A stretch of 64,000 nucleotides of DNA from Firmicutes bacterium CAG:345 (GTDB lineage Bacteria; Bacillota_I; Bacilli_A; RFN20; CAG-288). A model generated the notes under the pieces. It saw only the letters and a list, made by a program, of their open reading frames with translations, was not told the origin of the DNA and did no database searches. Within the stretch, counting starts at the first letter, position 1. Every line of letters starts with the position of its first letter. The stretch is taken from contig FR893375.1 in assembly GCA_000433315.1 (NCBI GenBank), positions 10,718-74,717 of the forward strand. Direction: 5' to 3'. The position numbers and the translations under genes were made by a program. Of the stretch, positions 2,988 through 64,000 are shown piece by piece.

Positions 2988-4871
2988 TTAACCTCCTACA
3001 CCTTTATCAATAGAAGCTCCTGTTAATTTATTAACTACAACATTAATAATTAAAACCGAGAGAATGATAATTAAATTGATACCATTACTAATTTGTGTAC
3101 AATCATATTTTTCATAGTTTTGTAAAACTGCTGTTAAAATTGTACTACTACCTGTTAATAAAACGAATAAGGTCAACTCTCTCATACAGGAAACAAATGG
3201 TAGCAAATATCCTGAAATGAAACTTGATTTTTGAATAGGGAATAAAACCTTCACCATTCTCTTCCACCAAGGAACCCCAACAATTATTGCAGCTTCTTCG
3301 ATTTCATTCGATAATTGAAGCATAGCATTTGTTCCTGATTTAGAAGCAAAAGGTAAAAATTTAATAGAGCCAACAACAATGAGTAACACTAAAGAACCAT
3401 TTAAGAAACTTAATGCACTAGTATAAGAAAGAATCAAATATATAGTAGCGAATGACATTGCTGGAATTAAGTAAGGCAAGAAAGCTAAATTACTGACATA
3501 GTTAGATAATTTACTTCCACGTCTTTTAGCAACACCATATCCTACTAAAATACCAAACGTTCCAGCAATAAATGCACAGACAATAGAAATCCATAAAGAA
3601 TTTAAGAAAGCTTTCCAGATATCAGCATTTCTTAAAATACCAACAGATCCATAAATTGACTCATTAGTTTGTTCTGTTGTAATCCAATAATATAATGTAA
3701 ATGTTGAATAATCACCAGAAACTCTTAAGAATGATTCAAGAGCAAACGATACAAGAGGAATAATGGCAAAGAAAGCTGCATATAAAACAACAATTGTAGT
3801 AATAACTGGTTTTGCAACTTTTCCAAGTTTAACAAGAGAAATTTGTGAAGATTTACCTGTTACTGTGGTAAATGATCTTTTTGAATTAGTAATAAATTGA
3901 TTAAATAAGAGAATTACAATACTGAATAACATCAATACTGTAGCCATAACATAACCTTGACCTTTATATTGAGAACCATTAATAAGATTCTTCATTTGTA
4001 AAGAAAGAGTCATGAAACCACTTTTTGTTCCTAAAAATGCAGGAACTGTATAACTACTAATAGAACTAGCAAAAACTAATAATACTGTAGAAATAAGAGC
4101 AGGCATAACAATTGGTAAAGTGATTCTTCTTAAAATTTTGAATCGAGAAGCTTTCAAAATTGTAGCAGCCTCTTCTAAGTTTGCATCCATATTTCGCAAA
4201 ATACCACCAATTAAGATATAAGCAAATGGTGCATAGTGAATACCTAAACATATTGCACAAGGCCAGAATCCATAAACAAAGCTCGCTGGTACAGCAATAT
4301 GTGTCAGTGATTGGAGCATCCCTACTTGAGCTTGGGTGCCTTCCAAATAAACATTATTTTTGAAAAAGTTTTCCCAGAACATTGCAATCGACCAACTTGG
4401 CATAATATATGGGAAAACAAATACAGTTGAAATAAATTTTTTAGCTGGGAAATCACTTCTTGTAATAAGCCAAGCAATTCCTCCACCAACAAATAATGAA
4501 ATAAGACAAGCAACTAAAGCCATCAATACTGAATTTAATAAAGGCTTATAAAATACGTTGATAGAATAATAATAGTCTTCTTTTGATACTTCAGAAAATA
4601 TACCTATCCAATGGTCCATAGTTAGTGCACCAACAGCCTTATGAAGTCTTAATGATTCACCTTGATGGACAAGAATTGTATTATATAGAAGATATACTAA
4701 AGGAATAACAACAGTAATAGTTAATAATATTGCAAAAATAACTAATATAATATTTGATGGTTTAGAAAAATATGTTTTCAATGCATTTAATATTTTTCCA
4801 AACTTAGACAATTCATCTTTATTTTTGCCCTCAGGAGTCTTATTTTCATCTAAAGATAATGTTTCGTTCAT
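2988..4871 (-). CDS. ABC transporter permease, fused two-domain type (FbpB/ThiP/PotBC-like).
   Basis: 627 aa with about 12 predicted TM helices. Two copies of the binding-protein-dependent transport (EAA-loop) domain. Sits directly between the SBP and ATPase genes. Confidence 0.8.
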   Translation of the reverse strand: MNETLSLDENKTPEGKNKDELSKFGKILNALKTYFSKPSNIILVIFAILLTITVVIPLVYLLYNTILVHQGESLRLHKAVGALTMDHWIGIFSEVSKEDYYYSINVFYKPLLNSVLMALVACLISLFVGGGIAWLITRSDFPAKKFISTVFVFPYIMPSWSIAMFWENFFKNNVYLEGTQAQVGMLQSLTHIAVPASFVYGFWPCAICLGIHYAPFAYILIGGILRNMDANLEEAATILKASRFKILRRITLPIVMPALISTVLLVFASSISSYTVPAFLGTKSGFMTLSLQMKNLINGSQYKGQGYVMATVLMLFSIVILLFNQFITNSKRSFTTVTGKSSQISLVKLGKVAKPVITTIVVLYAAFFAIIPLVSFALESFLRVSGDYSTFTLYYWITTEQTNESIYGSVGILRNADIWKAFLNSLWISIVCAFIAGTFGILVGYGVAKRRGSKLSNYVSNLAFLPYLIPAMSFATIYLILSYTSALSFLNGSLVLLIVVGSIKFLPFASKSGTNAMLQLSNEIEEAAIIVGVPWWKRMVKVLFPIQKSSFISGYLLPFVSCMRELTLFVLLTGSSTILTAVLQNYEKYDCTQISNGINLIIILSVLIINVVVNKLTGASIDKGVGG

Positions 4872-7995: not shown

Positions 7996-8649
7996 ATGAA
8001 CTATAATGAAGAATTTTTTACAAGATTACAAGAATTAATCAATCAATATAAAAATATTGATATTTCCGAAAATACTTTACTAATCGGAGCCTCACACTTT
8101 ACTTTTTGGAAGGAAAAGGCAGAAGAAGATCTTTCGCCTAACCTTAAAGCAATAAATTTTGGCATCGGAGGAACAACCGCTTTATTTTGGAAAATCAATA
8201 TGAATTTATTTAAAACTTTCAAATATCAACCCAAAAATATTTTATTGTCTATCGGTGGAAATGATATATCACAAAATTGTTCAAATGTAGAAACAATAAA
8301 TAGAATAATTTCTGTATTCAATCAAATCAAAGATATTTTTCCAAAAACTAATATGTACTTTGTTGGTATGTTTTCTAGCCCTTGTAAAATTAAAGATGGA
8401 AGAAATCAAAAGCAAAAAGAAGTATCTTTAGCAATTGATCAATATATTGAAACTGAAAAGGATAAAAATCTATTTTATATAGATACCCATAATTTTGTAT
8501 ATAAAAACAATAGTAATATTTTCGATAACGCTTATAATAAAAATATTGACTTAAATTTATTTTTAGATGATAATCTTCACCTTAATCAAAATGGATTCAA
8601 GCTTTTTGGTGAAACAATAAAAAAGTATTTTACTAGTAAATATCAATAA
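7996..8649 (+). CDS. SGNH/GDSL-family hydrolase, cytoplasmic.
   Basis: Blocks I LLIGASHFTFW, II GIGGTT, III SIGGNDIS, V DDNLHLNQNG. No signal peptide. Confidence 0.7.
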   Translation: MNYNEEFFTRLQELINQYKNIDISENTLLIGASHFTFWKEKAEEDLSPNLKAINFGIGGTTALFWKINMNLFKTFKYQPKNILLSIGGNDISQNCSNVETINRIISVFNQIKDIFPKTNMYFVGMFSSPCKIKDGRNQKQKEVSLAIDQYIETEKDKNLFYIDTHNFVYKNNSNIFDNAYNKNIDLNLFLDDNLHLNQNGFKLFGETIKKYFTSKYQ

Positions 8650-8758
8650 ACATTTTATTTATAAAAGTAAAAGTTGTTTCTATTGTTTAGCTATTTTATG
8701 CAATAAAAAAACTATTGTTATCAATATTAGTTATACTGAAAGCAATAGTTTTTATTTT

Positions 8759-11149
8759 TTATAAAGCTAAATTAGATTTATAGGTATCAATATCACTTTG
8801 AACTTTAGTAATTTCATCATTGAATGAAGTTTCATCGCCATCTTTTGTGACAGCCTTCATTTCAGACCAAGTCATTTCCATGCCTTCTGATCCAAATAAA
8901 GTTCCTATTTTTCCTGATTGAGCAGCAATATTTGTTCCAACGATTTTTAATTCATTATTTATATATAAATACGCCGAGGAATCTAAAACAACAAGTTTAA
9001 AACTAAACTCCATAGGTTCAACTAAATTATAAGAAGTAGAAGTACTTGGTGTATGATTGAAAGTCGCTGGATATAAAACTCCATTTTGCTTATTATCCCA
9101 TAATAAGAAACGAGTATCATAGCCTTCATTAAATCTAATTTCAATATGAGCATTAGGGTTATGTGCTGTAATAATCCATTTGCCTTCAAGAACAAAGTTT
9201 CTGTTTAAAATATTTCCATCACCATTGATAATAGTTGTAGAAGAACCTACTGCATCATATTTTTCTTTAGTTATATCTTCAATTTTACCTTGCCTTTTTG
9301 AATCAACAACGCATGTTGACTTATAAAAATCTATATCACCTTTTACTAATGAAATAGCATTATTATAAGCTCCTTCATCTGTCGCTTTATTAGCAACGGT
9401 TAAATTTTTCCAAGATACGGCAATGTTTTCACCACCAAATTTAATTGGAATTAAATCTGTTACATCTGGCAAATCAATAGCAACAGCTCTTAATGTTCCA
9501 TCGATATATAAATATGCATTATCATCAGTTACAACTAATTTAAACTTAACATTTAATTTTGAATCAAATTTATAACTGCTTGTTCCTCTGACATATCCAA
9601 AAGTAGCAACATCAAAAGAAGAAACATCACCACCATGGCCTCCCCAGAATAAAAATCTTTTTTCAGCATCTTCATTGAAGCAAATTTCAATATGAGGATT
9701 ATTGCCTAATTCTTTAATATCCCATCCTCCTTCAAGGACAAAGTTTCTAGAAAGAACAGTACCATTATCAAATAATGCTCTAGATTGGAGAACTGTATCT
9801 TCTAATGAAACATCAAAATCTTCTAATGATTTTTTAGTAGATTCTCCAATTTCACATCCAGCATTTAATAACTCATCAACAAAAATTTGATAATATTCAT
9901 TTTTAGGATGTGTATTATCTTTATACATCGATGGATCATGTCTATCAAATTTACTAGTGCTATCAACATATGTAATCCAATCTCTATCACCAGCCCATTT
10001 TTCCATTTCAGCATTAACAGCATCAACAATATCCCATTCACCATTATTTTGATAAGCTCTTTGAGTAATACCAAAATAATATAAATTTGTAGATGGATAA
10101 CTTTCATGGAATCTTCTTAATAATCTTTGAGTATTATTAATTGTTTGATTGATAGAAGCTTTATCATCATAGACATTATTTGTTCCTAAATGAATAGCAA
10201 TATTCTTTGGAGAATGATCGCCAAAAACTGTTTCATAATAAGTTTCCCAATCTTGTGTTGTTGTCGAAGATATGCCAAAAGCTTCTATATTATATTCAGG
10301 GAATTGTGTTGCATATCCTGTCCAGAAATTTCTGGCATCAAAATATGAATCTCCAACAAAATATGTTGTATCATCATTTTTATATTTTTTAGCAAGCTGC
10401 TTTGCATAACTTAAATAACCATTATCTTTATATTCGAAAGAATTTTCATCTACTTCATAGGCTATAACTTTAAACTTAGCACTATAGTGGGCACTTGTTG
10501 CTTCAACATCATACATACCTGCTTTTAATGGAGTAACAAGATGATTTTCTTCATCAATTTCTAAAGCTTTTGAATTATATTTATATGTCAGTTTTTCAAT
10601 ATGCTTTTCATTTTCATATTTTAAAACAAAATCTGATAATGGATAATTTCCTAAAGTTGCATAAACATTATTAATTGTCAATTTTCCATATTCTTGTAAT
10701 GTATTAACATAAAATTTAGTTTCAAAATGTATAGAAGATGCAGTAATCTCAACCATTTCGCCAACTTTTAAAACAGAAATAACATCATTTTCAATTTTTA
10801 TAGCTGTTTCATCATAAGTATAACTCAGTTTTTCACCCAAAGAACTATTTGAAAAAACAGGTTTAATTTCAAATGTATCATTTAAAGCTAAATCAATACT
10901 TTCAATACTAACTGTTCCATAATCAACATCGGTTGTTGAAGATGAACTTGAAGAAGATGATGAATTCAATGTGGAAGAACTAGTAGAAGAAGAACTTGAA
11001 GTAGAATTAGATGAAGTAGATGGTCTTACACTAGATGAACTTGTAGAAACACTTGAAGATGAACTACTAGATGAAGTAGTATTTCCACTACAAGATGCTA
11101 AAAGAGAAGGAAATAAAAGTAAACTTAATAATAAATATCTTTTTTTCAT
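8759..11149 (-). CDS. Large surface lipoprotein. Ser-rich linker, two Big_2-like Ig domains, an SGNH esterase domain and a tandem pair of about 130-aa lectin/jelly-roll-like C-terminal domains.
   Basis: MKKRYLLLSLLLFPSLLASCSG lipobox, then ~70 aa of poly-Ser. SGNH blocks YFVGDSYFD, HLGTNNV, DNTHP. Internal duplication NRNFVLEGGWDI...ICFNEDAEKRFLFWGG...KFKLVV..AYLYI versus NRNFVLEGKWII...IRFNEGYDTRFLLWDN...SFKLVV..AYLYI. Confidence 0.7.
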   Translation of the reverse strand: MKKRYLLLSLLLFPSLLASCSGNTTSSSSSSSSVSTSSSSVRPSTSSNSTSSSSSTSSSTLNSSSSSSSSSTTDVDYGTVSIESIDLALNDTFEIKPVFSNSSLGEKLSYTYDETAIKIENDVISVLKVGEMVEITASSIHFETKFYVNTLQEYGKLTINNVYATLGNYPLSDFVLKYENEKHIEKLTYKYNSKALEIDEENHLVTPLKAGMYDVEATSAHYSAKFKVIAYEVDENSFEYKDNGYLSYAKQLAKKYKNDDTTYFVGDSYFDARNFWTGYATQFPEYNIEAFGISSTTTQDWETYYETVFGDHSPKNIAIHLGTNNVYDDKASINQTINNTQRLLRRFHESYPSTNLYYFGITQRAYQNNGEWDIVDAVNAEMEKWAGDRDWITYVDSTSKFDRHDPSMYKDNTHPKNEYYQIFVDELLNAGCEIGESTKKSLEDFDVSLEDTVLQSRALFDNGTVLSRNFVLEGGWDIKELGNNPHIEICFNEDAEKRFLFWGGHGGDVSSFDVATFGYVRGTSSYKFDSKLNVKFKLVVTDDNAYLYIDGTLRAVAIDLPDVTDLIPIKFGGENIAVSWKNLTVANKATDEGAYNNAISLVKGDIDFYKSTCVVDSKRQGKIEDITKEKYDAVGSSTTIINGDGNILNRNFVLEGKWIITAHNPNAHIEIRFNEGYDTRFLLWDNKQNGVLYPATFNHTPSTSTSYNLVEPMEFSFKLVVLDSSAYLYINNELKIVGTNIAAQSGKIGTLFGSEGMEMTWSEMKAVTKDGDETSFNDEITKVQSDIDTYKSNLAL

Positions 11150-11300
11150 ATAACCTCAAAATAAGCGGTATAGCGCTTACACGTTGATTATACACGATTA
11201 CAATATTTATTTAATCATTAATTTTATTGATATTATATTTATAGTTTTTATCTCTATTTATTCAATTCATAATTTGATAGAATTTAAAAGAAGGTTAAAT

Positions 11301-11618
11301 ATGAAAACAAATAACATAGCAATGAAACAAATACTAATGGAAGCAGAAAAAGAAATCAATAAATTTTATAATTCTAAAAATTTTCTAGCTGCCATAATTA
11401 CTGGCGAAGAAAAAGAATTATCTTTTGATTTGTATTCCAAAGAAGATTTAAAAACTCAAAAACTTAAGAGCATCCAGTTAGTAAAAGAATACAAGCCGCT
11501 TTGGTTAATTTATGAAGAAGAAAATAACATATATATTTTTTTTAAAAATAGCAATGGAAATATTGAAAATATAACATTAGAAGATATTCCTCATTGCATA
11601 AATTATTCACGCATTTAA
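11301..11618 (+). CDS. Hypothetical protein (105 aa).
   Basis: ORF with a good RBS (aaaagaagg, 7 nt upstream of the ATG at 11301). The longer upstream extension in the ORF track has no RBS and reads through AT-rich promoter DNA. Confidence 0.5.
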   Translation: MKTNNIAMKQILMEAEKEINKFYNSKNFLAAIITGEEKELSFDLYSKEDLKTQKLKSIQLVKEYKPLWLIYEEENNIYIFFKNSNGNIENITLEDIPHCINYSRI

Positions 11619-11653
11619 AAAGATAGTTGGCAAGTTCCAACTATCTTTCTTTT

Positions 11654-12745
11654 TTATTTCTTTAACAAAGAAGTTAATTGTGAAACAATATCTCCGCTTC
11701 CGGTAACATTGATGCTTCCAATTTTATCTGATATCTTTTCTATAAATTCCATTTCTTTCAACTTATATAAAGTTGGGTTATCTTCCATCAATTTTGCAGT
11801 ATTGAGTAAAGATCTTGTCGAAGCAACTTCTTCACGTCTAGTAATAACATTAGCTTGTGCTTTTTTAGTTGCAATTAAAACAGTATTCATAATATCACGC
11901 ATATCGCCAGGAAGAATAATATCTTTGATTCCTACCTCAGTAATTGTAATATAATTTTTCTTTAAATCATCTTTGATAGCATCAAAAATATAATTTGCCA
12001 TCTCATTTCTGCTGTCTAAAACTTCATCCAAAGTTTTAGTTCCAACATAATCACGTGCAGCAAATTGTAATTTTAAATATATTTGGCGACTGTAATCTTC
12101 ATAGCATTCTATTACTTTAACAGGATCATCAACAAGATAATTACAAACTATATTAACACGAATAGTTGCCTTATCCTGTGTTAAAACCTCTTGTCCTGTC
12201 ATATCGATATTTGTTTCTCTAACTGGTATATTCTCATATGTAACAACCTGAAGGTTTTTCCAATAAAAATATCTGCCTGGCTCTAAAACTTCAGATAATT
12301 TACCATCGATAAAGAGCAAGCCCTTTTTAAATTCTTCAATCATAACTGAAATGAAATATTTAGAAGGTATTTTCTCAAAAAGATAAATTGGAAAATCATC
12401 GGCTACTTTTGTATTTTTATAACTTGTTTTTATGAAAGTATTAACCCTATTTTCCTTTGAAAAAATATGCAAGCCACTTTCAAGAAAACAATCATAATTA
12501 TCATCAACAAAATGAACGCCATACTCTTGATCGCCAACTTCGTAAAAATCAAACAAATCTTTAGCGCCTTCTTTTTCTAAAATATCTCTTTTAGAGATAT
12601 ACTTAGAAGAAATTTCTGCATTTAAATTTATTACTTCAATAAATGTTGATGGAAAATGATGATAAAGTCCAGCTTTAACAAACTTGATAAAACGACCTTT
12701 TTTAAACAATAAACCAACTTGATTTTGCTTAACTAATGTTTTCAT
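11654..12745 (-). CDS. SPFH/band-7 (stomatin/flotillin-like) domain protein, soluble, with an N-terminal partial repeat of the first SPFH beta-hairpin.
   Basis: C-terminal two-thirds match an SPFH domain (IRVNIVCNYLVDDP...LDEVLDSRNEM...ITITEVGIKDIILPGDMRDIMN...RREEVASTRS). No TM segment. The N-terminus QVGLLFKKGRFIKFVKAGLYHHFP repeats FKKGLLFIDGKLSEVLEPGRYFYW. RBS aaaggagga. Confidence 0.7.
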   Translation of the reverse strand: MKTLVKQNQVGLLFKKGRFIKFVKAGLYHHFPSTFIEVINLNAEISSKYISKRDILEKEGAKDLFDFYEVGDQEYGVHFVDDNYDCFLESGLHIFSKENRVNTFIKTSYKNTKVADDFPIYLFEKIPSKYFISVMIEEFKKGLLFIDGKLSEVLEPGRYFYWKNLQVVTYENIPVRETNIDMTGQEVLTQDKATIRVNIVCNYLVDDPVKVIECYEDYSRQIYLKLQFAARDYVGTKTLDEVLDSRNEMANYIFDAIKDDLKKNYITITEVGIKDIILPGDMRDIMNTVLIATKKAQANVITRREEVASTRSLLNTAKLMEDNPTLYKLKEMEFIEKISDKIGSINVTGSGDIVSQLTSLLKK

Positions 12746-12989
12746 ATATTTCTAAATCCTCCTTTGTAAATTAAAGAAATCATCCAATTTCTAAAGCGGT
12801 CTAATAATTAAGTAGATTCGATTTTATAACGGGAGCTAAGCTATGGCTATAATTTCAAAAAAACGATATCCTCAAAAGAACAAGGCTTTTCGAAATTTGT
12901 CTTATCCGAAGATAAAACGGGATGATTGTAGTCAGTCTGTATCTCTATAGATCAAATAGTTCTTGATTTTTTACTAATGAAAAAACCGA

Positions 12990-13160
12990 GGTCAAAAAAG
13001 AACGCGGAGAGTCGAACTCCAAAAATCAATTTCGATTACAACGACCATGCTAGTTGTCGGGATTAAAATTAAAGGAATACACGAATGTGCACCGCAATAT
13101 CTTTTAGAAATATCCGCACTAATTTTTTTCCAAAACCATTATACCACATAGCAAAAAAGA
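12990..13160 (-). ncRNA. Candidate structured RNA or long 5' leader transcribed toward the SPFH gene. Identity unresolved.
   Basis: Extended -10 promoter TGgTATAAT on the minus strand (plus coordinates 13138..13146). Downstream RNA contains a tRNA-like T-arm (u)GGAG-UUCGACU-CUCC(g) at 13001..13017 and a UUCG-tetraloop hairpin at 12909..12928. 526 bp with no long ORF. Confidence 0.3.
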
Positions 13161-13271
13161 AATTATATATTCTTAGAATATAAAAACTTCGCCTGAATTT
13201 TTAATAATTCTCTTTTCCTTACGTTTAAAACAAGACTAAAATATGCTAAAATAAAATAAGAAAGGCAAATA

Positions 13272-14546
13272 ATGAATAACAAATTTCTTCAACTAAAAGC
13301 ATTGAAACAAATCATCGATGAAAAGAAATCATTTCAATCAGTTTTGGAAAATATTGTAAGACAAAACAACTTGTCAGAAAATGATAAGGTTGTTTTTAAG
13401 CTTGATGTCCTAGGCAGTCTGCGTCATTTCTATCAACTTCAATATGAAGCTACCAAAGAATTTCCAGAGTTTATGCCCGACGATGATGAAATTTACTTAA
13501 TAATTATTGCCTTATATGAGCTTCGCTATCATAGCAAAGATTTAGCTGGTTATGAAGTAATAAATCAAACAACAGCAACTATAAAATTTATGAGTCTCAG
13601 GTTAGATTCTGAACAAGTAAAAAATAAATTAGAAGAAATAACAAAAAAGAAATTTGTTTTGCCAGAAGATTTAAAAAAGGATCTCTATGCTTATAACGCT
13701 TTGTTTTTTAATACTCCGAAATGGATAATAGAACTTTTAACTTCTGAATATGGCGATGATATCTGTATGAATTTTCTTCTTTCAAGTCAGAGAAAAGGAT
13801 CTCAATATCTTGCAATAAATACAATTTACCGCAAAATTGAAGACTTCTCGAACGATGTAAGATTTATTCATCCTCAAGTTCTCAATACTGCTTTAGAATA
13901 TCAAACAGGTAAATGTTCTAATTTAATCGAAGTAAAAAAAGGGGATTTATTTCCACAAGATTTATCAACTCAAATTATGTTGAATTCTTTGAATTATTGT
14001 TTCAAGCAAAAAACTCTTCATATAGGAGCAAAATCTGGTTCCATCATGGCTGAAGTCGCTATCAGAATTCATGATAATGGTGGATATGTTGATGCACTTT
14101 TCTCCAATGACAAAAAGTACTCTTCGGCAAAATATCTTTCTAGAAGATTAGGATTAGATAATACCCATATATTTTATGGCAGTCTTAAAATGATGAAGAC
14201 ATATAGTCCTTATAACTCATATGATATGGTCATATATTCTCCTAACTCTTCAAAATTAGGACAAGTCAGAAGAAGACCTGATATATTTCCAACACTTCAA
14301 AAAGAAGACATCTTTAAATATTGTGCTAAGTCATCTATCGATTTAAATGAAGTGAAAAAATTTGTTGCTAGCGATAGCTATTTAATATATCATGTTCCAA
14401 CAATTACTAAAGAAGAAACAATAAATATCATCAAAGATTTTCTCAGCAAAAATGATGATTTTATCTTAGAATATGAAAGACAAATTTTTCCTTATGAATA
14501 TGGTTCTGATGGATTATATTTTGCAGTTTTGAAGAAAATAAAATAA
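13272..14546 (+). CDS. RsmB/Sun-family (NOL1/NOP2) 16S rRNA m5C methyltransferase homologue lacking both catalytic cysteines. Likely a pseudoenzyme.
   Basis: Occupies the rsmB position upstream of rlmN-stp-stk-rsgA-rpe. NusB-like N-terminus. Motif IV DMVIYSPNSSKLGQVRRRPDI aligns to D..LLDAPCSGTGVIRRHPDI (PCS to PNS). Motif VI YHVPTITKEE aligns to Y.TCS..PEEN (TCS to PTI). Motif I LHIGAKSGS is degenerate versus LDLCAAPGGKT. Confidence 0.6.
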   Translation: MNNKFLQLKALKQIIDEKKSFQSVLENIVRQNNLSENDKVVFKLDVLGSLRHFYQLQYEATKEFPEFMPDDDEIYLIIIALYELRYHSKDLAGYEVINQTTATIKFMSLRLDSEQVKNKLEEITKKKFVLPEDLKKDLYAYNALFFNTPKWIIELLTSEYGDDICMNFLLSSQRKGSQYLAINTIYRKIEDFSNDVRFIHPQVLNTALEYQTGKCSNLIEVKKGDLFPQDLSTQIMLNSLNYCFKQKTLHIGAKSGSIMAEVAIRIHDNGGYVDALFSNDKKYSSAKYLSRRLGLDNTHIFYGSLKMMKTYSPYNSYDMVIYSPNSSKLGQVRRRPDIFPTLQKEDIFKYCAKSSIDLNEVKKFVASDSYLIYHVPTITKEETINIIKDFLSKNDDFILEYERQIFPYEYGSDGLYFAVLKKIK

Positions 14547-14555
14547 AGGTGAATT

Positions 14556-15599
14556 ATGAAAAATATCTATGGTCTAACTCTTGAAAAATTAACCGAAGAA
14601 ATGCTTTCATTAGAACAAAAAAGTTTTAGAGCAAAACAACTCTTCTCTTGGCTTTACGTTAAGAATGCAACATCATTTGATGAAATGAGTGATATATCTC
14701 TTAAATTCCGTGAAGTTCTTAAAGAAAAATATAGTATAGAAAAGCCAAAATTGTTTTTAAAACAAAAAAGCATTGATGGAACAACAAAGCTTCTTTTAGA
14801 AATGCGTGATGGAGAAAAAATAGAAACTGTTTTAATGCCATATAACTATGGAAATGCAATATGTATTTCAACTCAAGTTGGATGCAATATGGGATGTAAA
14901 TTCTGTGCCTCTGGTCTATTGAAAAGAAAAAGAAATTTATCGACAGAAGAATTAGTAGGGCAAGTTTTAATTCTCAATGATGTTCTTCGTGAAAATAATC
15001 AGAACCCTGTAACTCATGTTGTTGTAATGGGAACAGGGGAACCTTTTGATAATTATGATAATGTCATCGATTTTATCAGAATTATAAATTCACAATTTGG
15101 ATTAGCTATCGGAGCAAGGCATATAACCGTTTCAACATCTGGAATTGTTCCAGGAATTTTAAAATATGGAAAAGAAGGATTACAAATAAATCTAGCTGTT
15201 TCTCTTCACGCTCCTACAAACCAATTACGCGATATCATAATGCCTATAAACAAAGCTTATCCTTTGGAACAATTGATTCCAGCAATCGTTCAGTATGGAA
15301 AAGATAGCAATGGAAGAAGAGTAACTTATGAATACATTATGATTCAGGATTTTAATGATTCTGAAGAATGTGCTGATAAACTTATTGAATTAATTAAACC
15401 TACATTTGGATATGTAAATTTAATACCTTATAATCGTGTTATAGAAAATGATTTCTATCGTTCTTCTAATAATCGTATCCATCGTTTCCATGATAAATTA
15501 TTAAAGGCTGGAATAAAAGCTACAATCAGAAAAGAATTTGGAGCTGACATCGATGCAGCTTGCGGACAATTAAGAGCTAAATATGCAAACAAAAATTAA
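14556..15599 (+). CDS. rlmN: 23S rRNA/tRNA adenine-C2 methyltransferase RlmN (radical SAM).
   Basis: CNMGCKFCASG radical-SAM cysteine motif. GTGEP, RlmN/Cfr family length and synteny. Confidence 0.9.
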   Translation: MKNIYGLTLEKLTEEMLSLEQKSFRAKQLFSWLYVKNATSFDEMSDISLKFREVLKEKYSIEKPKLFLKQKSIDGTTKLLLEMRDGEKIETVLMPYNYGNAICISTQVGCNMGCKFCASGLLKRKRNLSTEELVGQVLILNDVLRENNQNPVTHVVVMGTGEPFDNYDNVIDFIRIINSQFGLAIGARHITVSTSGIVPGILKYGKEGLQINLAVSLHAPTNQLRDIIMPINKAYPLEQLIPAIVQYGKDSNGRRVTYEYIMIQDFNDSEECADKLIELIKPTFGYVNLIPYNRVIENDFYRSSNNRIHRFHDKLLKAGIKATIRKEFGADIDAACGQLRAKYANKN

Positions 15600-16326
15600 T
15601 GGTGCCACACTAACAAATATTGGCAGAAAAAGAACAAAAAATGAAGACGCAGCTTATTTTAATAGTTGCGAAGATTTTACTTTGCTGATGATTGCTGATG
15701 GTATTGGTGGTCATAAAAAAGGTGAAGTAGCAAGTGATATGACAATCAGTATCGTATCTAATAAAATTTCAAATTTTGAAAAAGCATTCAAATTAACAAC
15801 ATCAAGACGTTTGATTAAAAATGCAATTAAATATGCTAATAAAGAAGTGAATAATCTAAGTGTTAAACAAGAATATTTAGATATGGGTACTACTTTAGTT
15901 TTAGCTTTAGTGCTTAAAGAAAAAACTATAATTGCAAATATTGGAGATTCGCGACTATATCGCTTTGATAAAGAATTCGGTTTAACACAATTAACTGTAG
16001 ATCAAAATTATGTACAATATATGATTCAAATTGGAAAAATGACAAAAGAAGAAGCAAAAAATTCCAATAAAAAGAATGTTTTACTCAATGCATTAGGTGT
16101 TAATCCAAGTGTCTACTACGATGAACAAATTATCGACAATAACTACGATGCATTACTGCTATGCTCAGATGGATTATATAATATGGTTTCATTAGAAGAA
16201 CTAAATAAAATAATGTACTTAAATATTTCTGTTGAAGAAAAAGTAAAAAAGCTTATCGATACAGCCAACCGCAATGGTGGCTTTGATAATATAGGTGTAA
16301 GTTTAATGGAGGTAAAACAATGTTAG
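15583..16326 (+). CDS. prpC: PP2C-family Ser/Thr protein phosphatase (Stp/PrpC).
   Basis: MIADGIGGHKKGEVAS, TTLVLAL, LLCSDGL PP2C motifs. Overlaps the downstream kinase gene. Confidence 0.85.
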   Translation: MQTKINGATLTNIGRKRTKNEDAAYFNSCEDFTLLMIADGIGGHKKGEVASDMTISIVSNKISNFEKAFKLTTSRRLIKNAIKYANKEVNNLSVKQEYLDMGTTLVLALVLKEKTIIANIGDSRLYRFDKEFGLTQLTVDQNYVQYMIQIGKMTKEEAKNSNKKNVLLNALGVNPSVYYDEQIIDNNYDALLLCSDGLYNMVSLEELNKIMYLNISVEEKVKKLIDTANRNGGFDNIGVSLMEVKQC

Positions 16327-17198
16327 AAACAGGTAGTTTAATCGATGACCGTTATAAGATAATTAAAGTCTTAGGTGAAGGCGGAATGGCTGTTGTCTAT
16401 CTTGCTAAAGATGTGATTTCCAATAAAGATGTAGCTGTAAAAATAATAAAAGAAGAAACGATGAAAAATCCTGTAAATTTAACAAGATTCGAACGCGAAG
16501 CAAGAGCAGCTGCCTCATTAAATCATCAAAATATTGTCAGAGTAATAAATCTTGGTGCCCATGATAATCGCCCATATATGGTTAACGAATACATCAGAGG
16601 TAAAACTTTAAGAGATACTTTAAATGTTCGCGGTAAATTCTCTTTTTTAGAGGCCTGCGATATTATGTATCAACTTTGCTCTGCTGTCCTATTTGCTCAT
16701 CAACACGGAGTCATCCATAGAGATATTAAACCACAAAATGTTTTTATCACTGTCGATGGAACAGTAAAATTAGGCGATTTTGGAATTGCAACATTCCAAA
16801 ATTCCGCCCATGTCACCAGAAGTGAAGTAGTTGTTGGTAGCGTTCATTACTTAGCACCTGAGATATCACAAGGCAATCCAGCTACTCCACAAAGCGATAT
16901 TTATTCTTTAGGAATAACATTCTTCGAATTAATTACAGGACGTGTTCCTTTTGATGATGAATCCGCTCTAGCTGTTGCATTAAAACATATCAAAGAAAAA
17001 TTCCCATCTGTTAGAATATATAACCCTAAAACTCCTATTGTCATTGAAAAAATAATTACTAAGGCTTGTGCAAAATCGCCTTTAGATCGTTATCATTCCG
17101 TTGCAGACATGCGTAAAGATATTGAAAAAGTATTACATGACCCAAGTTGTTTAGAAGAAAAGAAAGGCTTCTTTGCACGTTTATTCCATCGTAAATAA
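16320..17198 (+). CDS. prkC: Ser/Thr protein kinase, kinase domain only (no TM or PASTA repeats).
   Basis: GEGGMAVVYLAKD (G-loop), VAVKII (VAIK), HRDIKPQNV, DFGIA, APE. Ends about 20 aa after the kinase domain, at 292 aa, whereas canonical PrkC is over 600 aa. Confidence 0.85.
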   Translation: MLETGSLIDDRYKIIKVLGEGGMAVVYLAKDVISNKDVAVKIIKEETMKNPVNLTRFEREARAAASLNHQNIVRVINLGAHDNRPYMVNEYIRGKTLRDTLNVRGKFSFLEACDIMYQLCSAVLFAHQHGVIHRDIKPQNVFITVDGTVKLGDFGIATFQNSAHVTRSEVVVGSVHYLAPEISQGNPATPQSDIYSLGITFFELITGRVPFDDESALAVALKHIKEKFPSVRIYNPKTPIVIEKIITKACAKSPLDRYHSVADMRKDIEKVLHDPSCLEEKKGFFARLFHRK

Positions 17199-17200
17199 TT

Positions 17201-18067
17201 ATGGAAAAAGGAATAATAATCAGCGGTACAAAAAGAGAATATCAAGTTTATATTCATTCTTCCAAAAACATCAAAAAAGCTGTAGTCCGAAAAACTTTAA
17301 TTTATAAATTCGGGCCTCTTTTTGTTGGAGATGAAGTTGATATCGATGAAGATGAAACAATTTGTAACCTCTATCCACGTAAAAATAGATTAATTCGACC
17401 TAAAGTTGCTAATGTTAGTTATGCGGCTATTTGTACATCAACAGCCGAGCCTTCTTTTACCTCATATCTTTTAGAAAAATATCTTACTTATTTGATTTAT
17501 TGCCACGTTACTCCTCTGATTTTCTTTACAAAAACAGATATGCTCGACAACAATGAATTAACAAGAATATTAAGCTATAAAAAATATTATGAAACACTAG
17601 GATATAAAACATTTATGATCAGCACTAAAAATTCTGAAACATTTATGCCTCTAAAAGAAATTATCAAAGATAAGAATGTTATATTTATGGGACAAACCGG
17701 AGTTGGAAAAAGTTCATCCTTAAATATGATTGATCCAACATTAGAAAGAAAAATAGGTGAGTATTCTAAAGCCCTTGGAAGAGGAAAGCATCAAACAAAA
17801 GAAGTTGTTCTTTTTCCTTATCAAAACGGATTTATCGGAGATACTCCTGGATTTTCTAGCTTAGAACTTCCGATGAAACAAGATGAACTAGCAGCTTGTT
17901 TCCCTGGATTTGAAAATTTTGCCCATCTTTGTTTTTATACAGATTGTCTTCATATTTTCGAAAAAAAATGTGAAGTAAAAAAACACATAGAAGAAGGCTT
18001 TATCAGCAAAGAAAGTTACGAAAATTATAAAAAAATGTTAGAAGAACTTAAGGAGAAAGGAAAATGA
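17201..18067 (+). CDS. rsgA: Ribosome small-subunit biogenesis GTPase RsgA (YloQ/CpgA).
   Basis: Circularly permuted GTPase: TKTDML (G4), GQTGVGKSS (G1), DTPGF (G3). C-terminal Zn-finger cysteines CFYTDCLHIFEKKC. Confidence 0.85.
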   Translation: MEKGIIISGTKREYQVYIHSSKNIKKAVVRKTLIYKFGPLFVGDEVDIDEDETICNLYPRKNRLIRPKVANVSYAAICTSTAEPSFTSYLLEKYLTYLIYCHVTPLIFFTKTDMLDNNELTRILSYKKYYETLGYKTFMISTKNSETFMPLKEIIKDKNVIFMGQTGVGKSSSLNMIDPTLERKIGEYSKALGRGKHQTKEVVLFPYQNGFIGDTPGFSSLELPMKQDELAACFPGFENFAHLCFYTDCLHIFEKKCEVKKHIEEGFISKESYENYKKMLEELKEKGK

Positions 18068-18726
18068 AAGATATTATTATAGCCCCTTCATTATTAGCAG
18101 CAAACTTTTTAAATCTTGAAAAAGAAATAACAAGATTAGAAGAAGCTAAAATTAAATGGCTTCATTATGATGTCATGGATGGACATTTTGTTCCAGCAAT
18201 ATCTTTCGGTTCAGAAATTTTAAAACAAATAAGTAATTTTACAGATCTTTTTTTAGATGTTCATATTATGGCCACTAATCCTGAACATTGTGCAAAATTA
18301 TTAATTGATGCTGGTGCAAATAATATTACATTCCATTATGAAGCAACAGGTGATGTAATAGAAACAATTAATAAGCTCCGAGAAATGTCTGCTGATATTA
18401 TGATTGGCATGAGCATAAAACCATTAACACCTGTCGATGAAATTTTAGAATATTTACCTTATTTAGATATGATTTTAGTTATGAGCGTTGAACCCGGAAA
18501 AGGTGGACAAAAATTCAATATTGAAGCTCTAGATAAAATAGAACAATTGCGAAGATATATTGATGAAAATTCATTTGAATGTCTCATCGAAGTTGATGGT
18601 GGAATCAATGGTGAAACTGGAAAAGATTGCGCTCTAGCTGGAGCAGATGTTTTAGTATCTGGAACATATTTATTTAGATCAGAAAATATAGAAAAATCTA
18701 TCGAAAAAATAAAAAATATAGATTAA
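18064..18726 (+). CDS. rpe: Ribulose-phosphate 3-epimerase.
   Basis: IAPSLLAANFLNLEKE...HYDVMDGHFVP...VHIM...MSVEPG...EVDGGI motifs. Downstream of rsgA as in Bacilli. Confidence 0.9.
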   Translation: MKDIIIAPSLLAANFLNLEKEITRLEEAKIKWLHYDVMDGHFVPAISFGSEILKQISNFTDLFLDVHIMATNPEHCAKLLIDAGANNITFHYEATGDVIETINKLREMSADIMIGMSIKPLTPVDEILEYLPYLDMILVMSVEPGKGGQKFNIEALDKIEQLRRYIDENSFECLIEVDGGINGETGKDCALAGADVLVSGTYLFRSENIEKSIEKIKNID

Positions 18727-18810
18727 CTTTTACAGTAATAAAATTGTGTATTAATAATTGACTTGTCAAAAATTTTAAATAAATTAATATATTTACAGGA
18801 GGCAAAATCT

Positions 18811-19458
18811 ATGTTTCAACAAGGAATAGTCATTTCTTCGACAGTAGCATTGCTCGGATTAATAATTTTAATATATTTAGGATATAAAATTATCCATGAC
18901 AAAATGTCTTTTTTATCAACATATCCTTCAGACTTAATAAATGATTCCAATTCAAAAGTTACTAAAACTATTCTCTATTGGCTATATTTAATTTTGTCCG
19001 GATTTAACTTCGTTTTTTTCTTTTTTACATTCAATACAAAAACGACTTTAATTGGTGGATGTATACTCCTTTTCGCATCATTATTAGCAATTATTTTGCC
19101 ATTCTTTAAAAATATAAAATCATTAAGTTATTACAGTATAATTTATTTTCTAATATCTTCCTTTGGCTCTTTAATGTGCGGACTTGGAGGAATTGTTGAA
19201 GTTCAAATTGCTGGACACTATTCTTATCCATTGTGGCTAGCTATCATTTTCATAATTATAGGTGTAATAGAATTTGGCTTAGTATTTGTTCCACCATTAT
19301 GGAATATTCAATTCAACCAAAAAACAGAAGAAAATGGAAAGACAATATATATTCGTCCTAAAAAATCAATTCTTTCATTGTTCCAATGGATTTATCTAGG
19401 AATTGGTTATATTCAATGTATTCTTTTATTAATTGCTTCTTTCCTTTTAAAATTATAA
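18811..19458 (+). CDS. Hypothetical integral membrane protein (about 6 TM).
   Basis: Hydrophobic throughout. Start moved to the ATG at 18811 with RBS acaggagg. Confidence 0.5.
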   Translation: MFQQGIVISSTVALLGLIILIYLGYKIIHDKMSFLSTYPSDLINDSNSKVTKTILYWLYLILSGFNFVFFFFTFNTKTTLIGGCILLFASLLAIILPFFKNIKSLSYYSIIYFLISSFGSLMCGLGGIVEVQIAGHYSYPLWLAIIFIIIGVIEFGLVFVPPLWNIQFNQKTEENGKTIYIRPKKSILSLFQWIYLGIGYIQCILLLIASFLLKL

Positions 19459-19466
19459 TTTTAATC

Positions 19467-19503
19467 TAAATAAAATAGTTGGAAATTTAGTTATGTAAAT
19501 TTC
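19467..19503. terminator. Bidirectional rho-independent terminator.
   Basis: agttggaaattt-agttatgt-aaatttccaact, a 12-bp stem followed by tttttt. Confidence 0.75.
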
Positions 19504-19511
19504 CAACTTTT

Positions 19512-63167: not shown

Positions 63168-63812
63168 TTAACCTATAATTAATTGAACTTGCTTCGTCAT
63201 TTTTTGTAATGGAATATATAAAGCTCCACCAATAACTAATACAGCGGCTAAACTAATTGCATTATATGGAAGGTTATAATATACAAAAGAATAATAGAAT
63301 GGTTGCATATTATCAGGAGCATATTCTCCAAAAAGAAAAGCACCAGAAATAGAAGATGATAGATATTTAATTACAAATCCAAGAATTGCAGCAACGAAGA
63401 ATGACCAAGGTTTATTCTTATAATATAACTTTGAAAATAAACCACCCATTAATCCTATACCAGCAAAAGGAATAATATAATCAAGAAATACAGATGCCCA
63501 ATGATAAACAACACCATCCATCATAAGATTGATTAAACTATAACAAGCACCTACAACAAAACCATAAACAGGTCCTAAATAAAGTCCAGAAATAACTATT
63601 CCTAGCCCTTCAAGTGAGATAGAACCACCCTGTGGCATTTTTGGTAACCCATAAGTTAAAAAAGATAGTACAAAACTTAATGCCACAAATAAAGCAGACA
63701 TTGATAATTTTCTAATTTGTCGTCTAACTTTGTAACCATCAACACTTTTTGAATTAGGATGCTTAACAATCTTTTTTTCTTCTAATTCACTTTGCAAATT
63801 CTCTGTATCCAT
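63168..63812 (-). CDS. thiT: ECF transporter substrate-specific S component, probably thiamine-specific (ThiT-like) given the upstream TPP riboswitch.
   Basis: About 6 TM helices and of S-component size. Strong RBS aaggagg. TPP riboswitch immediately upstream. The EcfAA'T module is encoded at 31631..34207. Confidence 0.65.
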   Translation of the reverse strand: MDTENLQSELEEKKIVKHPNSKSVDGYKVRRQIRKLSMSALFVALSFVLSFLTYGLPKMPQGGSISLEGLGIVISGLYLGPVYGFVVGACYSLINLMMDGVVYHWASVFLDYIIPFAGIGLMGGLFSKLYYKNKPWSFFVAAILGFVIKYLSSSISGAFLFGEYAPDNMQPFYYSFVYYNLPYNAISLAAVLVIGGALYIPLQKMTKQVQLIIG

Positions 63813-63854
63813 TAAAAAACCTCCTTGAAAGCAAAGAGGCAAACAAAACAAAAT

Positions 63855-63945
63855 TATGTTATCTCTTCGCTAGCATTATCTAGATCAGATACGGTCGATT
63901 CAACATCAGAATCCTCTCAGCCTTATGTTTAAAGCTCCCATAAAA
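63855..63945 (-). promoter_or_regulatory. TPP (thiamine pyrophosphate) riboswitch.
   Basis: Minus-strand GGGAGC...GGCUGAGAGGAUUCUGAUGUUGAAUCGACCGUAUCUGAUCUAGAUAAUGCUAGCGAAGAGAU matches the THI-box consensus (CUGAGA ... ACCnnnnnCUGAUCUGGAUAAUGCCAGCGnAGGGA). Confidence 0.85.
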
Positions 63946-64000
63946 AGTATAATTTTTTACTCAATATTTTTCAAGATAATTTTATAATCCGTGCTTATCT

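Follow-up and report, generated by a model that had tools for sequence, protein, structure and literature searches.

A 64,000-nucleotide stretch of DNA from Firmicutes bacterium CAG:345 (positions 10,718 to 74,717 of contig FR893375.1, assembly GCA_000433315.1; hereafter the window) was found to carry an orthologue of the gene for the 16S rRNA 5-methylcytosine (m5C) methyltransferase RsmB, the product of which has a full-length RsmB fold without the cofactor site or the catalytic cysteines. The open reading frame (ORF) lies at 13272-14546 on the plus strand, runs from ATG to stop and encodes 424 aa plus the stop; a GAAAGG Shine-Dalgarno sequence is located 7 nt 5′ of the start codon. A first-pass annotation had placed a full-length ORF here, at the rsmB position ahead of rlmN, the PP2C phosphatase and Ser/Thr kinase genes, rsgA and rpe, and had proposed that it encodes a catalytically dead pseudoenzyme kept intact. 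The ORF and its ribosome-binding site were confirmed, and domain matches downstream bore out the gene order. The pseudoenzyme proposal was supported by loss of the S-adenosylmethionine (SAM) motifs and both Cys, by the same loss in relatives, and by purifying selection.

That methyltransferase activity is lost is as certain as an analysis of sequence can make it: the protein has no glycine-rich loop, no SAM-holding acidic residues, no nucleophile and no conserved substitute. The loss of the cofactor site and catalytic cysteines was shown to be ancient and common to a large family of proteins from uncultured Bacilli, most of which have small genomes. That the protein is kept for some function is well supported. 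With moderate confidence, we infer that the dead rsmB orthologue has been retained for a non-catalytic role, probably in binding of RNA or of the precursor 30S (pre-30S) particle.

Fold and catalytic motifs of the RsmB-like protein

Cluster representatives, 1.84 billion in all, were searched exhaustively with HMMER; 1684 of them matched at E ≤1e-3, and 146 full-length (≥380 aa) proteins, mostly from the best 150 of the 1684 matches, were classified. Thirty of the 146 were live RsmBs of the ordinary kind, in which both cysteines, motif I and the acidic residue of motif II are present. The motif VI Cys was missing from 116 of the 146, and motif I was present in none of these; both Cys were lost in 109, and the motif IV Cys alone was kept in 7. 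None of the 146 proteins had the Cys of motif VI but lacked that of motif IV. In work by King and Redman on Trm4 and Nop2, this last combination reportedly traps covalent RNA adducts. The counts fit an order of loss in which the nucleophile or the SAM site would disappear ahead of the motif IV Cys.

Homology of the window protein to RsmB was evident from several comparisons. The RsmB/F domain PF01189 matched aa 266-400 with 38.7 bits (cutoff 27). Four of the five NCBIfam RsmB equivalog models aligned end to end at 69-108 bits and did not reach their cutoffs of 269-540 (PRK14902, 107.7 vs 319 bits; PRK10901, 89 vs 375; TIGR00563, 68.9 vs 269); no NCBIfam model other than the live-RsmB equivalogs matched the protein. 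The sole solved structure found by sequence (phmmer) was E. coli RsmB/Fmu 1sqf, at E 1.5e-6. When a profile of the 116 relatives was aligned with one of the 30 live RsmBs using hhalign, the probability was 100 and E was 5.4e-69 over 423 columns. A structure prediction, which the first-pass annotation had suggested as a check, gave the RsmB fold: the AlphaFold2 (AF2) model, with 8 homologues as input, had a mean predicted local distance difference test (pLDDT) score of 85 and a predicted template modelling (pTM) score of 0.83, and its best Foldseek matches were E. coli Fmu 1sqg/1sqf, with a template modelling (TM) score of 0.85 to 1sqg over the full length. The next-best matches were archaeal and eukaryotic NOL1/NOP2/Sun proteins, including Nop2 and NSUN4 on ribosome assembly intermediates. 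AF2, Foldseek and hhalign all recovered the three-domain RsmB architecture, i.e., an N-terminal helical NusB-like domain (aa 1-130; 13272-13661; helices in the AF2 model), a central N1/ferredoxin-like domain (aa 131-245; 13662-14006) and a Rossmann-type methyltransferase-like domain (aa 246-424; 14007-14543; recognised by PF01189, its strand/helix pattern and Foldseek).

The motif register was taken from three alignments, all of which agreed: phmmer to 1sqf, hhalign profile-profile, and a MAFFT alignment of 147 sequences including E. coli residues 9-397 for numbering. E. coli motif IV, D322-A-P-C325-S, corresponded to S323-P-N-S326-S, with Ser326 in place of the Cys and Ser323 in place of the Asp (remnant SPNSS, 14238-14252; Ser326 codon, 14247-14249). 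E. coli motif VI, T374-C375-S, corresponded to V375-P376-T377, with Pro376 (codon 14397-14399) in place of the nucleophile; the motif VI remnant SYLIYHVPTITKEET (14376-14420) retained Y373, T377 and E382. The first-pass annotation had read both losses from the strings DMVIYSPNSSKLGQVRRRPD (aa 318-337) and YHVPTITKEE (aa 373-382), which are present as quoted. Both losses held in all three alignments, and the profile alignment that it had suggested placed no Cys in the motif IV or VI columns; its register was off by one at each motif, since it assigned the replacements to Asn325 and Thr377. Motif I, quoted as LHIGAKSGS (aa 249-257), was degenerate as claimed: LHIGAKSGSIM (14016-14048) stood in place of LDxCAAPGGKT, with D252 replaced by H250, C254 by G252, P257 by S255 and K260 by I258. 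The motif II acidic position (E. coli D277) was occupied by Phe277 (codon 14100-14102) and the motif III Asp by Ser304. In the live representatives, D252, P257 and K260 were each present in 30/30; the motif II D/E was present in 30/30 live and 1/116 dead proteins.

These losses bear on whether the protein is still an enzyme, one that would bind SAM or another cofactor in an unusual manner and modify RNA by Cys-independent chemistry. In favour of this, the protein retains the fold as a whole and the loops that line the cleft, and some pseudoenzymes have proved to rely on relocated catalytic residues (PMC10211241). Against such an activity, none of the four motifs that contact the cofactor is kept and the family shows no conservation at their positions, no conserved Cys occurs anywhere in the Cys-less family, and the cofactor-binding half is the least constrained part, with the lowest model confidence in the methyltransferase-like domain. 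Cryptic catalysis is thus unlikely, to the point of being highly improbable. A relocated nucleophile was ruled out: a search for a conserved substitute across the columns of the Cys-less family found none with more than 28% Cys, and the four cysteines of the window protein are not conserved among homologues. The former nucleophile position was hypervariable in the dead family (P, N, S, Y, F, H, Q and others). It is also polymorphic within the species, as the conspecific variant P0020 carries P376Q, which fits the expectation for an unconstrained site.

Distribution and genomic position of dead RsmB

The orthologue comparison suggested by the first-pass annotation showed that relatives share the catalytic losses; in addition to the 116 representatives, these were found in 8 close homologues. 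A further 119 relatives of one subgroup, from a 5.8-billion protein set, had Ser at the motif IV position in 119/119 cases and no motif VI Cys, and some of them lie on 1.4-1.6 Mb contigs. The 5.8-billion set, searched with a profile made from the 116 aligned sequences, gave no more than 30 matches and little new taxonomy. Overall, dead RsmB was represented by at least 235 sequence clusters; named carriers were metagenome-assembled genomes (MAGs) labelled Bacilli, Bacillota, Erysipelotrichaceae, 'Tenericutes bacterium' and Candidatus Scatoplasma, and one record was labelled Treponema. The 90%-identity cluster comprised 312 sequences, and full-length Cys-less representatives ranged down to 19% identity. 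In a neighbour-joining tree, the reading of which is limited by rooting and long-branch effects, the live RsmBs formed one cluster and the dead ones lay outside it. The record labelled Treponema (L015; CP031517.1, Treponema rectale) carries a Bacillota-type operon with dead rsmB at 8001-13599 and a glgC-glgD-glgA cluster upstream. Its RlmN and kinase are 64% identical to those of the window, so that horizontal transfer or a labelling problem is possible.

In eight related genome species (L001-L008; comparison loci are cited by number), the gene was intact, at 32-50% identity, and preceded the same rlmN-PP2C-kinase-(rsgA)-rpe row. It occupied the same slot in the other Cys-less loci (L010-L016, L018, L019), and these loci span five subgroups. 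Minor differences in the row were seen: rlmN is missing from it in L018, where the rsmB slot is kept, and rsgA is missing from the operon in L008 and L016, where the kinase gene is followed directly by rpe. At L017, the live RsmB P0079, with a NusB domain, motif I and both Cys, is encoded between priA and rlmN. When the 64-kb window and L001-L009 were searched with a hidden Markov model of live RsmBs, no second ORF of the family was found. Because dead and live genes share the slot at rlmN, and because no second family member was found in the window or these nine loci, the dead protein is the positional rsmB orthologue, inactivated in place. On the same grounds of shared slot and absence of a second ORF in the window and L001-L009, the alternative that it is a paralogue was rejected.

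A whole radiation of uncultured, mostly small-genome Bacilli may have replaced its sole RsmB by a naturally dead version and kept it for a very long time; we put this forward tentatively, as quite possible though somewhat short of probable. If it is true, m5C967 would be missing from these Bacilli, and RsmB would contribute to small-subunit biogenesis in a way that selection can act on, that needs no methylation and that E. coli knock-outs have not revealed. Members of the family are labelled '16S rRNA (cytosine967-C5)-methyltransferase' in IMG, 'hypothetical protein' at NCBI, and 'SAM-dependent methyltransferase ... catalytic core domain-containing protein' in UniRef. Since pipelines label them as methyltransferases, predicted rRNA modification maps of these gut Bacilli are probably wrong at position 967.

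Two lineages with dead RsmB also encode a live RsmF-type m5C methyltransferase with a PUA domain (L018, 14296-15302; L019, 14044-15275; both minus strand). It has the motifs LDMCAAPGGKS, DAPCSGSG and YSTCS and lies 5-6 kb from the dead rsmB. The presence of this enzyme in L018 and L019 indicates that it is the RsmB orthologue specifically that has lost its chemistry. No RsmF-type gene was found in the 64-kb window or in L001-L009.

A second neighbour was more widespread. In most related lineages, a conserved ORF of ~170-184 aa with a weak match to DUF1904 (PF08921) and a strongly acidic C-terminal tail is located directly upstream of dead rsmB (L002, 7249-7776; L003, 8055-8573; L005, 9360-9869; L006, 9386-9886; L007, 8012-8512; L008, 7877-8392; L009, 6301-6825; L016, 7422-7976; L018, 4400-4936; L019, 6441-6968). 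This DUF1904-like ORF is absent from the window and from L017, the only live-RsmB locus examined. Its product could be a functional partner of dead RsmB.

Such neighbours raise the alternative that dead RsmB is not a stand-alone RNA chaperone and serves as a regulatory or scaffolding partner of another protein. Candidates could be the live RsmF-type paralogue, RlmN or RsgA, or dead RsmB could serve the PP2C/kinase pair of the operon as substrate or adaptor. Pseudoenzymes often partner active paralogues, as METTL14 does METTL3. The linked RsmF-type enzyme of L018 and L019 and the DUF1904-like acidic protein of many relatives are consistent with a partner role, as is the tight linkage, probably with translational coupling, of the gene to rlmN, PP2C, the kinase gene and rsgA. 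However, the lack of an RsmF-type gene in the window and in L001-L009 and of the DUF1904-like gene in the window argues against both of these candidates here, and E. coli RsmB is not known to depend on a partner. A partner role is therefore rather unlikely, although it is the most probable of the alternatives that we considered to a retained RNA- or pre-30S-binding role.

Constraint on dead RsmB and its proposed function

The gene was evidently maintained by selection. Its frame is intact, the missing residues are missing from its orthologues as well, and purifying selection has acted over a long divergence. Between L010 and L011, the only informative pair (90% protein identity), dN was 0.072, dS 1.9 and omega 0.038, an approximate value because dS is saturated, although non-synonymous substitution is plainly held down; omega of the operon neighbours in the same pair was 0.018-0.078. 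Sixty-five columns were invariant among eight homologues at 33-55% identity. The window differed from the conspecific loci L012-L014 by no more than 8 nt per aligned gene (0-4 nt across the operon genes). A decaying pseudogene or an assembly artefact was ruled out by the 312-member cluster at 90% identity, by the occurrence of the same protein on more than 20 independent contigs and by the omega value.

The same data bear on the suggestion that the gene is a functionless, decaying relic kept at the head of the operon for promoter or translational-coupling reasons. Its product is indeed the least conserved of the operon. However, Cys-less representatives remain at least 380 aa long down to 19% identity, the invariant columns and the low omega persist, and conserved residues specific to the dead family have arisen at R51, H52, K89, P131, T310 and E360. 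The gap to rlmN is 9 nt, so that no overlap forces conservation. Like cryptic catalysis, a functionless relic is unlikely, and we give it very little credence.

Conservation was computed in bits per 15-residue window and query numbering. The SAM-binding half (aa 241-310), which is among the most conserved regions of live RsmB (~2.1-3.0 bits), was the least conserved in the dead family (~1.1-1.3 bits); in its motif I columns, the frequency of the top residue did not exceed 0.32, and conservation at the positions of the cofactor motifs was 1.19 bits. In contrast, residues 141-165 and 361-415 were conserved in both families. For the N1 motif Y-x-S-L-x-x-N-x-P-x-W...Y-G (aa 141-161), conservation in the dead family equalled that in live RsmBs; in the window protein this central-domain motif reads YNALFFNTPKW at aa 141-151 (plus strand) and is conserved in dead and live families alike. 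The dead family also kept the P-x-S-S-x-L-G-x-x-R-x-x-P-D loop (aa 324-337), the G-G-x-L-x-Y-x-V-x-T...E strand and turn (aa 368-382) and a C-terminal F-L...P...(S-D-G)-x-Y-x-A motif. The window protein has KLGQVRRRPD after motif IV (14253-14282; G330, R333 and P336 kept in both families) and retains the C-terminal PxExxSDGxYxA motif as in live RsmB (14490-14525). The N1 motif, the post-motif-IV loop, the motif VI strand and the C-terminal motif were the best-kept parts of the dead family; apart from the N1 motif, their conservation was below that in live RsmB. In the close clade of the window protein, F-x-Q-D-L-S-x-Q and S-D-G were invariant; the central-domain part QDLSxQ corresponds to aa 229-234 (plus strand). 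Column statistics and invariant columns marked two further motifs in the N-terminal domain (within 13272-13661, plus strand), LRH at aa 50-52 for the family and DDDEIYL at aa 70-76 for the clade. These findings indicate that the cofactor side of the cleft drifts freely, that the substrate side is kept, and that the N-terminal domain has been remodelled.

This remodelling is relevant to the possibility that the NusB-like domain is the functional part, acting in antitermination or in transcription of rRNA operons, with the methyltransferase-like domain as a passive scaffold. NusB is an all-helical domain of topology similar to that of the dead RsmB N-domain, which in the close clade is as conserved as the rest of the protein (2.55 bits) and bears the clade-invariant motifs DDDEIYL and LRHF. 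The Pfam match to NusB (PF01029) was weak, however, and stayed below threshold (E 0.12; 13.2 bits vs cutoff 23.1), and in dead RsmB the N-domain is joined to two other RsmB domains. Live RsmB has an FVNxxLR motif in its N-domain, as does NusB; in dead RsmB this motif is lost and its columns are not conserved. Across the family, conservation was highest in the methyltransferase-like domain, in its C-terminal half, and not in the N-terminal domain (1.34 vs 1.67 bits). A NusB-like function is accordingly improbable, well below a partner role in our estimate.

The preferred reading, a retained binding role, follows the distribution of the kept residues. The conserved N1 motif, the PxSS-LG loop, the Y-x-V-x-T...E strand and the C-terminal motif would form the substrate side of the active-site cleft of live RsmB. 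Judged by the parts that stay conserved, dead RsmB would still be an RNA-binding module. Most probably it would bind nascent 16S rRNA (helix 31 / 3′ major domain) or a pre-30S particle independently of methylation, and the bound protein, which is co-expressed with RsgA and RlmN, could serve as a placeholder or as a chaperone of folding. RsmB recognises free 16S rRNA through the hairpin of nt 960-975, early in assembly (PMC3439901). Catalytically inactive NOP2/NSUN1 rescues rRNA processing (PMC9561284), and the inactive bacterial proteins RlmB(E198A) and RlmL(N309A) stimulate 50S assembly in E. coli (PMC11194073). Binding to 16S rRNA or the pre-30S particle is favoured because of this recognition of 16S rRNA by RsmB, the co-expression with RsgA, the NOP2-type precedents and the inactive RlmB and RlmL.

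Several points weigh against this reading. An E. coli rsmB/rsmD double deletion has no ribosome assembly defect (PMC3439901), so that the live enzyme has no established role in assembly apart from methylation. Dead RsmB is the fastest-evolving protein of the operon, with 32-50% identity compared with 66-78% for RlmN and 74-85% for the kinase, and the estimate of selection comes from a single saturated pair. Residues invariant in the N-domain of live RsmBs are lost in the dead family, namely R4, N116/L119/R120 (of FVNxxLR), P91 and A94, and the mode of RNA recognition may therefore have changed. The check for a live RsmB elsewhere covers the 64-kb window and flanks of ~10 kb. The principle of assembly without methylation is also not general, since RlmN and RluC need catalysis for their effect on assembly (PMC11194073).

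Compared with known systems, dead RsmB is closest to E. coli RsmB/Fmu (1SQF/1SQG; 16S m5C967) and the B. subtilis-type RsmB (YloM). It has the same three-domain architecture, length and rlmN slot, and shares with live RsmB the SxPxW...YG and R-x-N motifs, the S-x-LG-x-R-x-x-P-D loop, Y-x-x-x-T...E and P...DG-[FY]-x-A. It differs from both in lacking motifs I, II and III, the motif IV Asp, both Cys and FVNxxLR. NOP2/NSUN1 and NSUN4 have the same methyltransferase fold (Foldseek E 1e-14 to 1e-7) and are seen on pre-60S or mitoribosomal large-subunit intermediates. However, they are active, with Cys and SAM sites intact, and their non-catalytic role is known from engineered mutants, whereas the inactivation of dead RsmB is natural and family-wide; the putative target of dead RsmB is the 30S subunit rather than the large subunit. 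RlmB(E198A) and RlmL(N309A) are likewise bacterial rRNA methyltransferases that aid assembly without methylation (PMC11194073), but these are mutants made in the laboratory from other folds and families, and it is the large subunit on which they act. A more distant parallel is offered by METTL14, a protein of the Rossmann methyltransferase fold whose cofactor site has degenerated and which is retained as an RNA-binding or scaffolding subunit. METTL14 is an obligate partner of an active paralogue, whereas no partner is known for dead RsmB.

A full-text literature search found no description of a Cys-less or SAM-site-less RsmB; for Mollicutes, Grosjean et al. tabulate only presence or absence of RsmB (PMC4014445). 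A dead rRNA-modifying enzyme as an assembly factor is an established concept, and a natural, widespread dead bacterial RsmB appears to be new. Whether non-essential rRNA methyltransferases are kept for the methyl group or for the protein is an old question that has so far been approached mainly with engineered point mutants. The dead RsmB family amounts to a natural separation-of-function experiment, as whatever function it has is by definition methylation-independent.

Operon organisation and other features of the window

The window has a G+C content of 28% (AT-rich), and its housekeeping genes are typical of Bacillota (spoIIE, tilS, F-type ATP synthase and an energy-coupling factor [ECF] transporter). 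The rsmB-like ORF is the first gene of a compact row on the plus strand in which several genes overlap their neighbour. It is followed by rlmN (14556-15599), which starts 9 nt past the rsmB-like stop codon and encodes a radical SAM 23S rRNA/tRNA 2-methyladenosine (m2A) methyltransferase (PF21016 and PF04055); a prpC-like PP2C phosphatase gene (15583-16326), with a 17-nt overlap with rlmN; a prkC-like Ser/Thr kinase gene (16320-17198); rsgA, for the 30S assembly GTPase (17201-18067); rpe, for ribulose-phosphate 3-epimerase (18064-18726); and a gene for a conserved membrane protein (18763-19458), which ends the row in relatives too. A bidirectional terminator-like hairpin (19477-19508) lies between the operon and the convergent def gene. 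The PrkC-like kinase, the best conserved protein of the operon across species, consists of a kinase domain only; at 292 aa it is too short to include the PASTA repeats and transmembrane segment found in B. subtilis PrkC. In one conspecific strain (L014), a fructose-bisphosphate aldolase gene at 3076-3942 is split into two ORFs of 178 and 95 aa, which may reflect a pseudogene peculiar to this strain or an error in sequencing.

Upstream of the operon lies an unusually long spacer of 526 nt (12746-13271) in which no gene was called. A promoter-like site with an extended -10 (TG) is present at 13224-13252 on the plus strand, ~20 nt before the start codon, as a weak consensus match only. Rfam matches to a leader RNA in the spacer at E ≤1 were noise only, ARAGORN found no tRNA or tmRNA in it, and its folding was no better than that of shuffled sequences (z-scores 0.0 and +0.6). 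On the minus strand of the spacer, at 13005-13021, a hairpin resembling a tRNA T-arm, GGAGTTCGACTCTCC, is followed by a T run; it is possibly a tRNA remnant or the terminator of the neighbour of a Band-7 gene.

Two other regions of the window drew attention. A gene at 8759-11149 (minus strand) encodes a 796-aa lipoprotein with a lipobox followed by a long Ser/Thr-rich linker, and a GDSL/SGNH hydrolase domain; a module of ~120 aa is present in it as two internal copies, and a gene for a small GDSL protein (7996-8649) adjoins it. Near the end of the window, a thiamine pyrophosphate (TPP) riboswitch was detected at 63845-63951 (minus strand; 56.4 bits vs gathering score 54.3), at the 5′ end of a 227-aa ORF (63168-63851).

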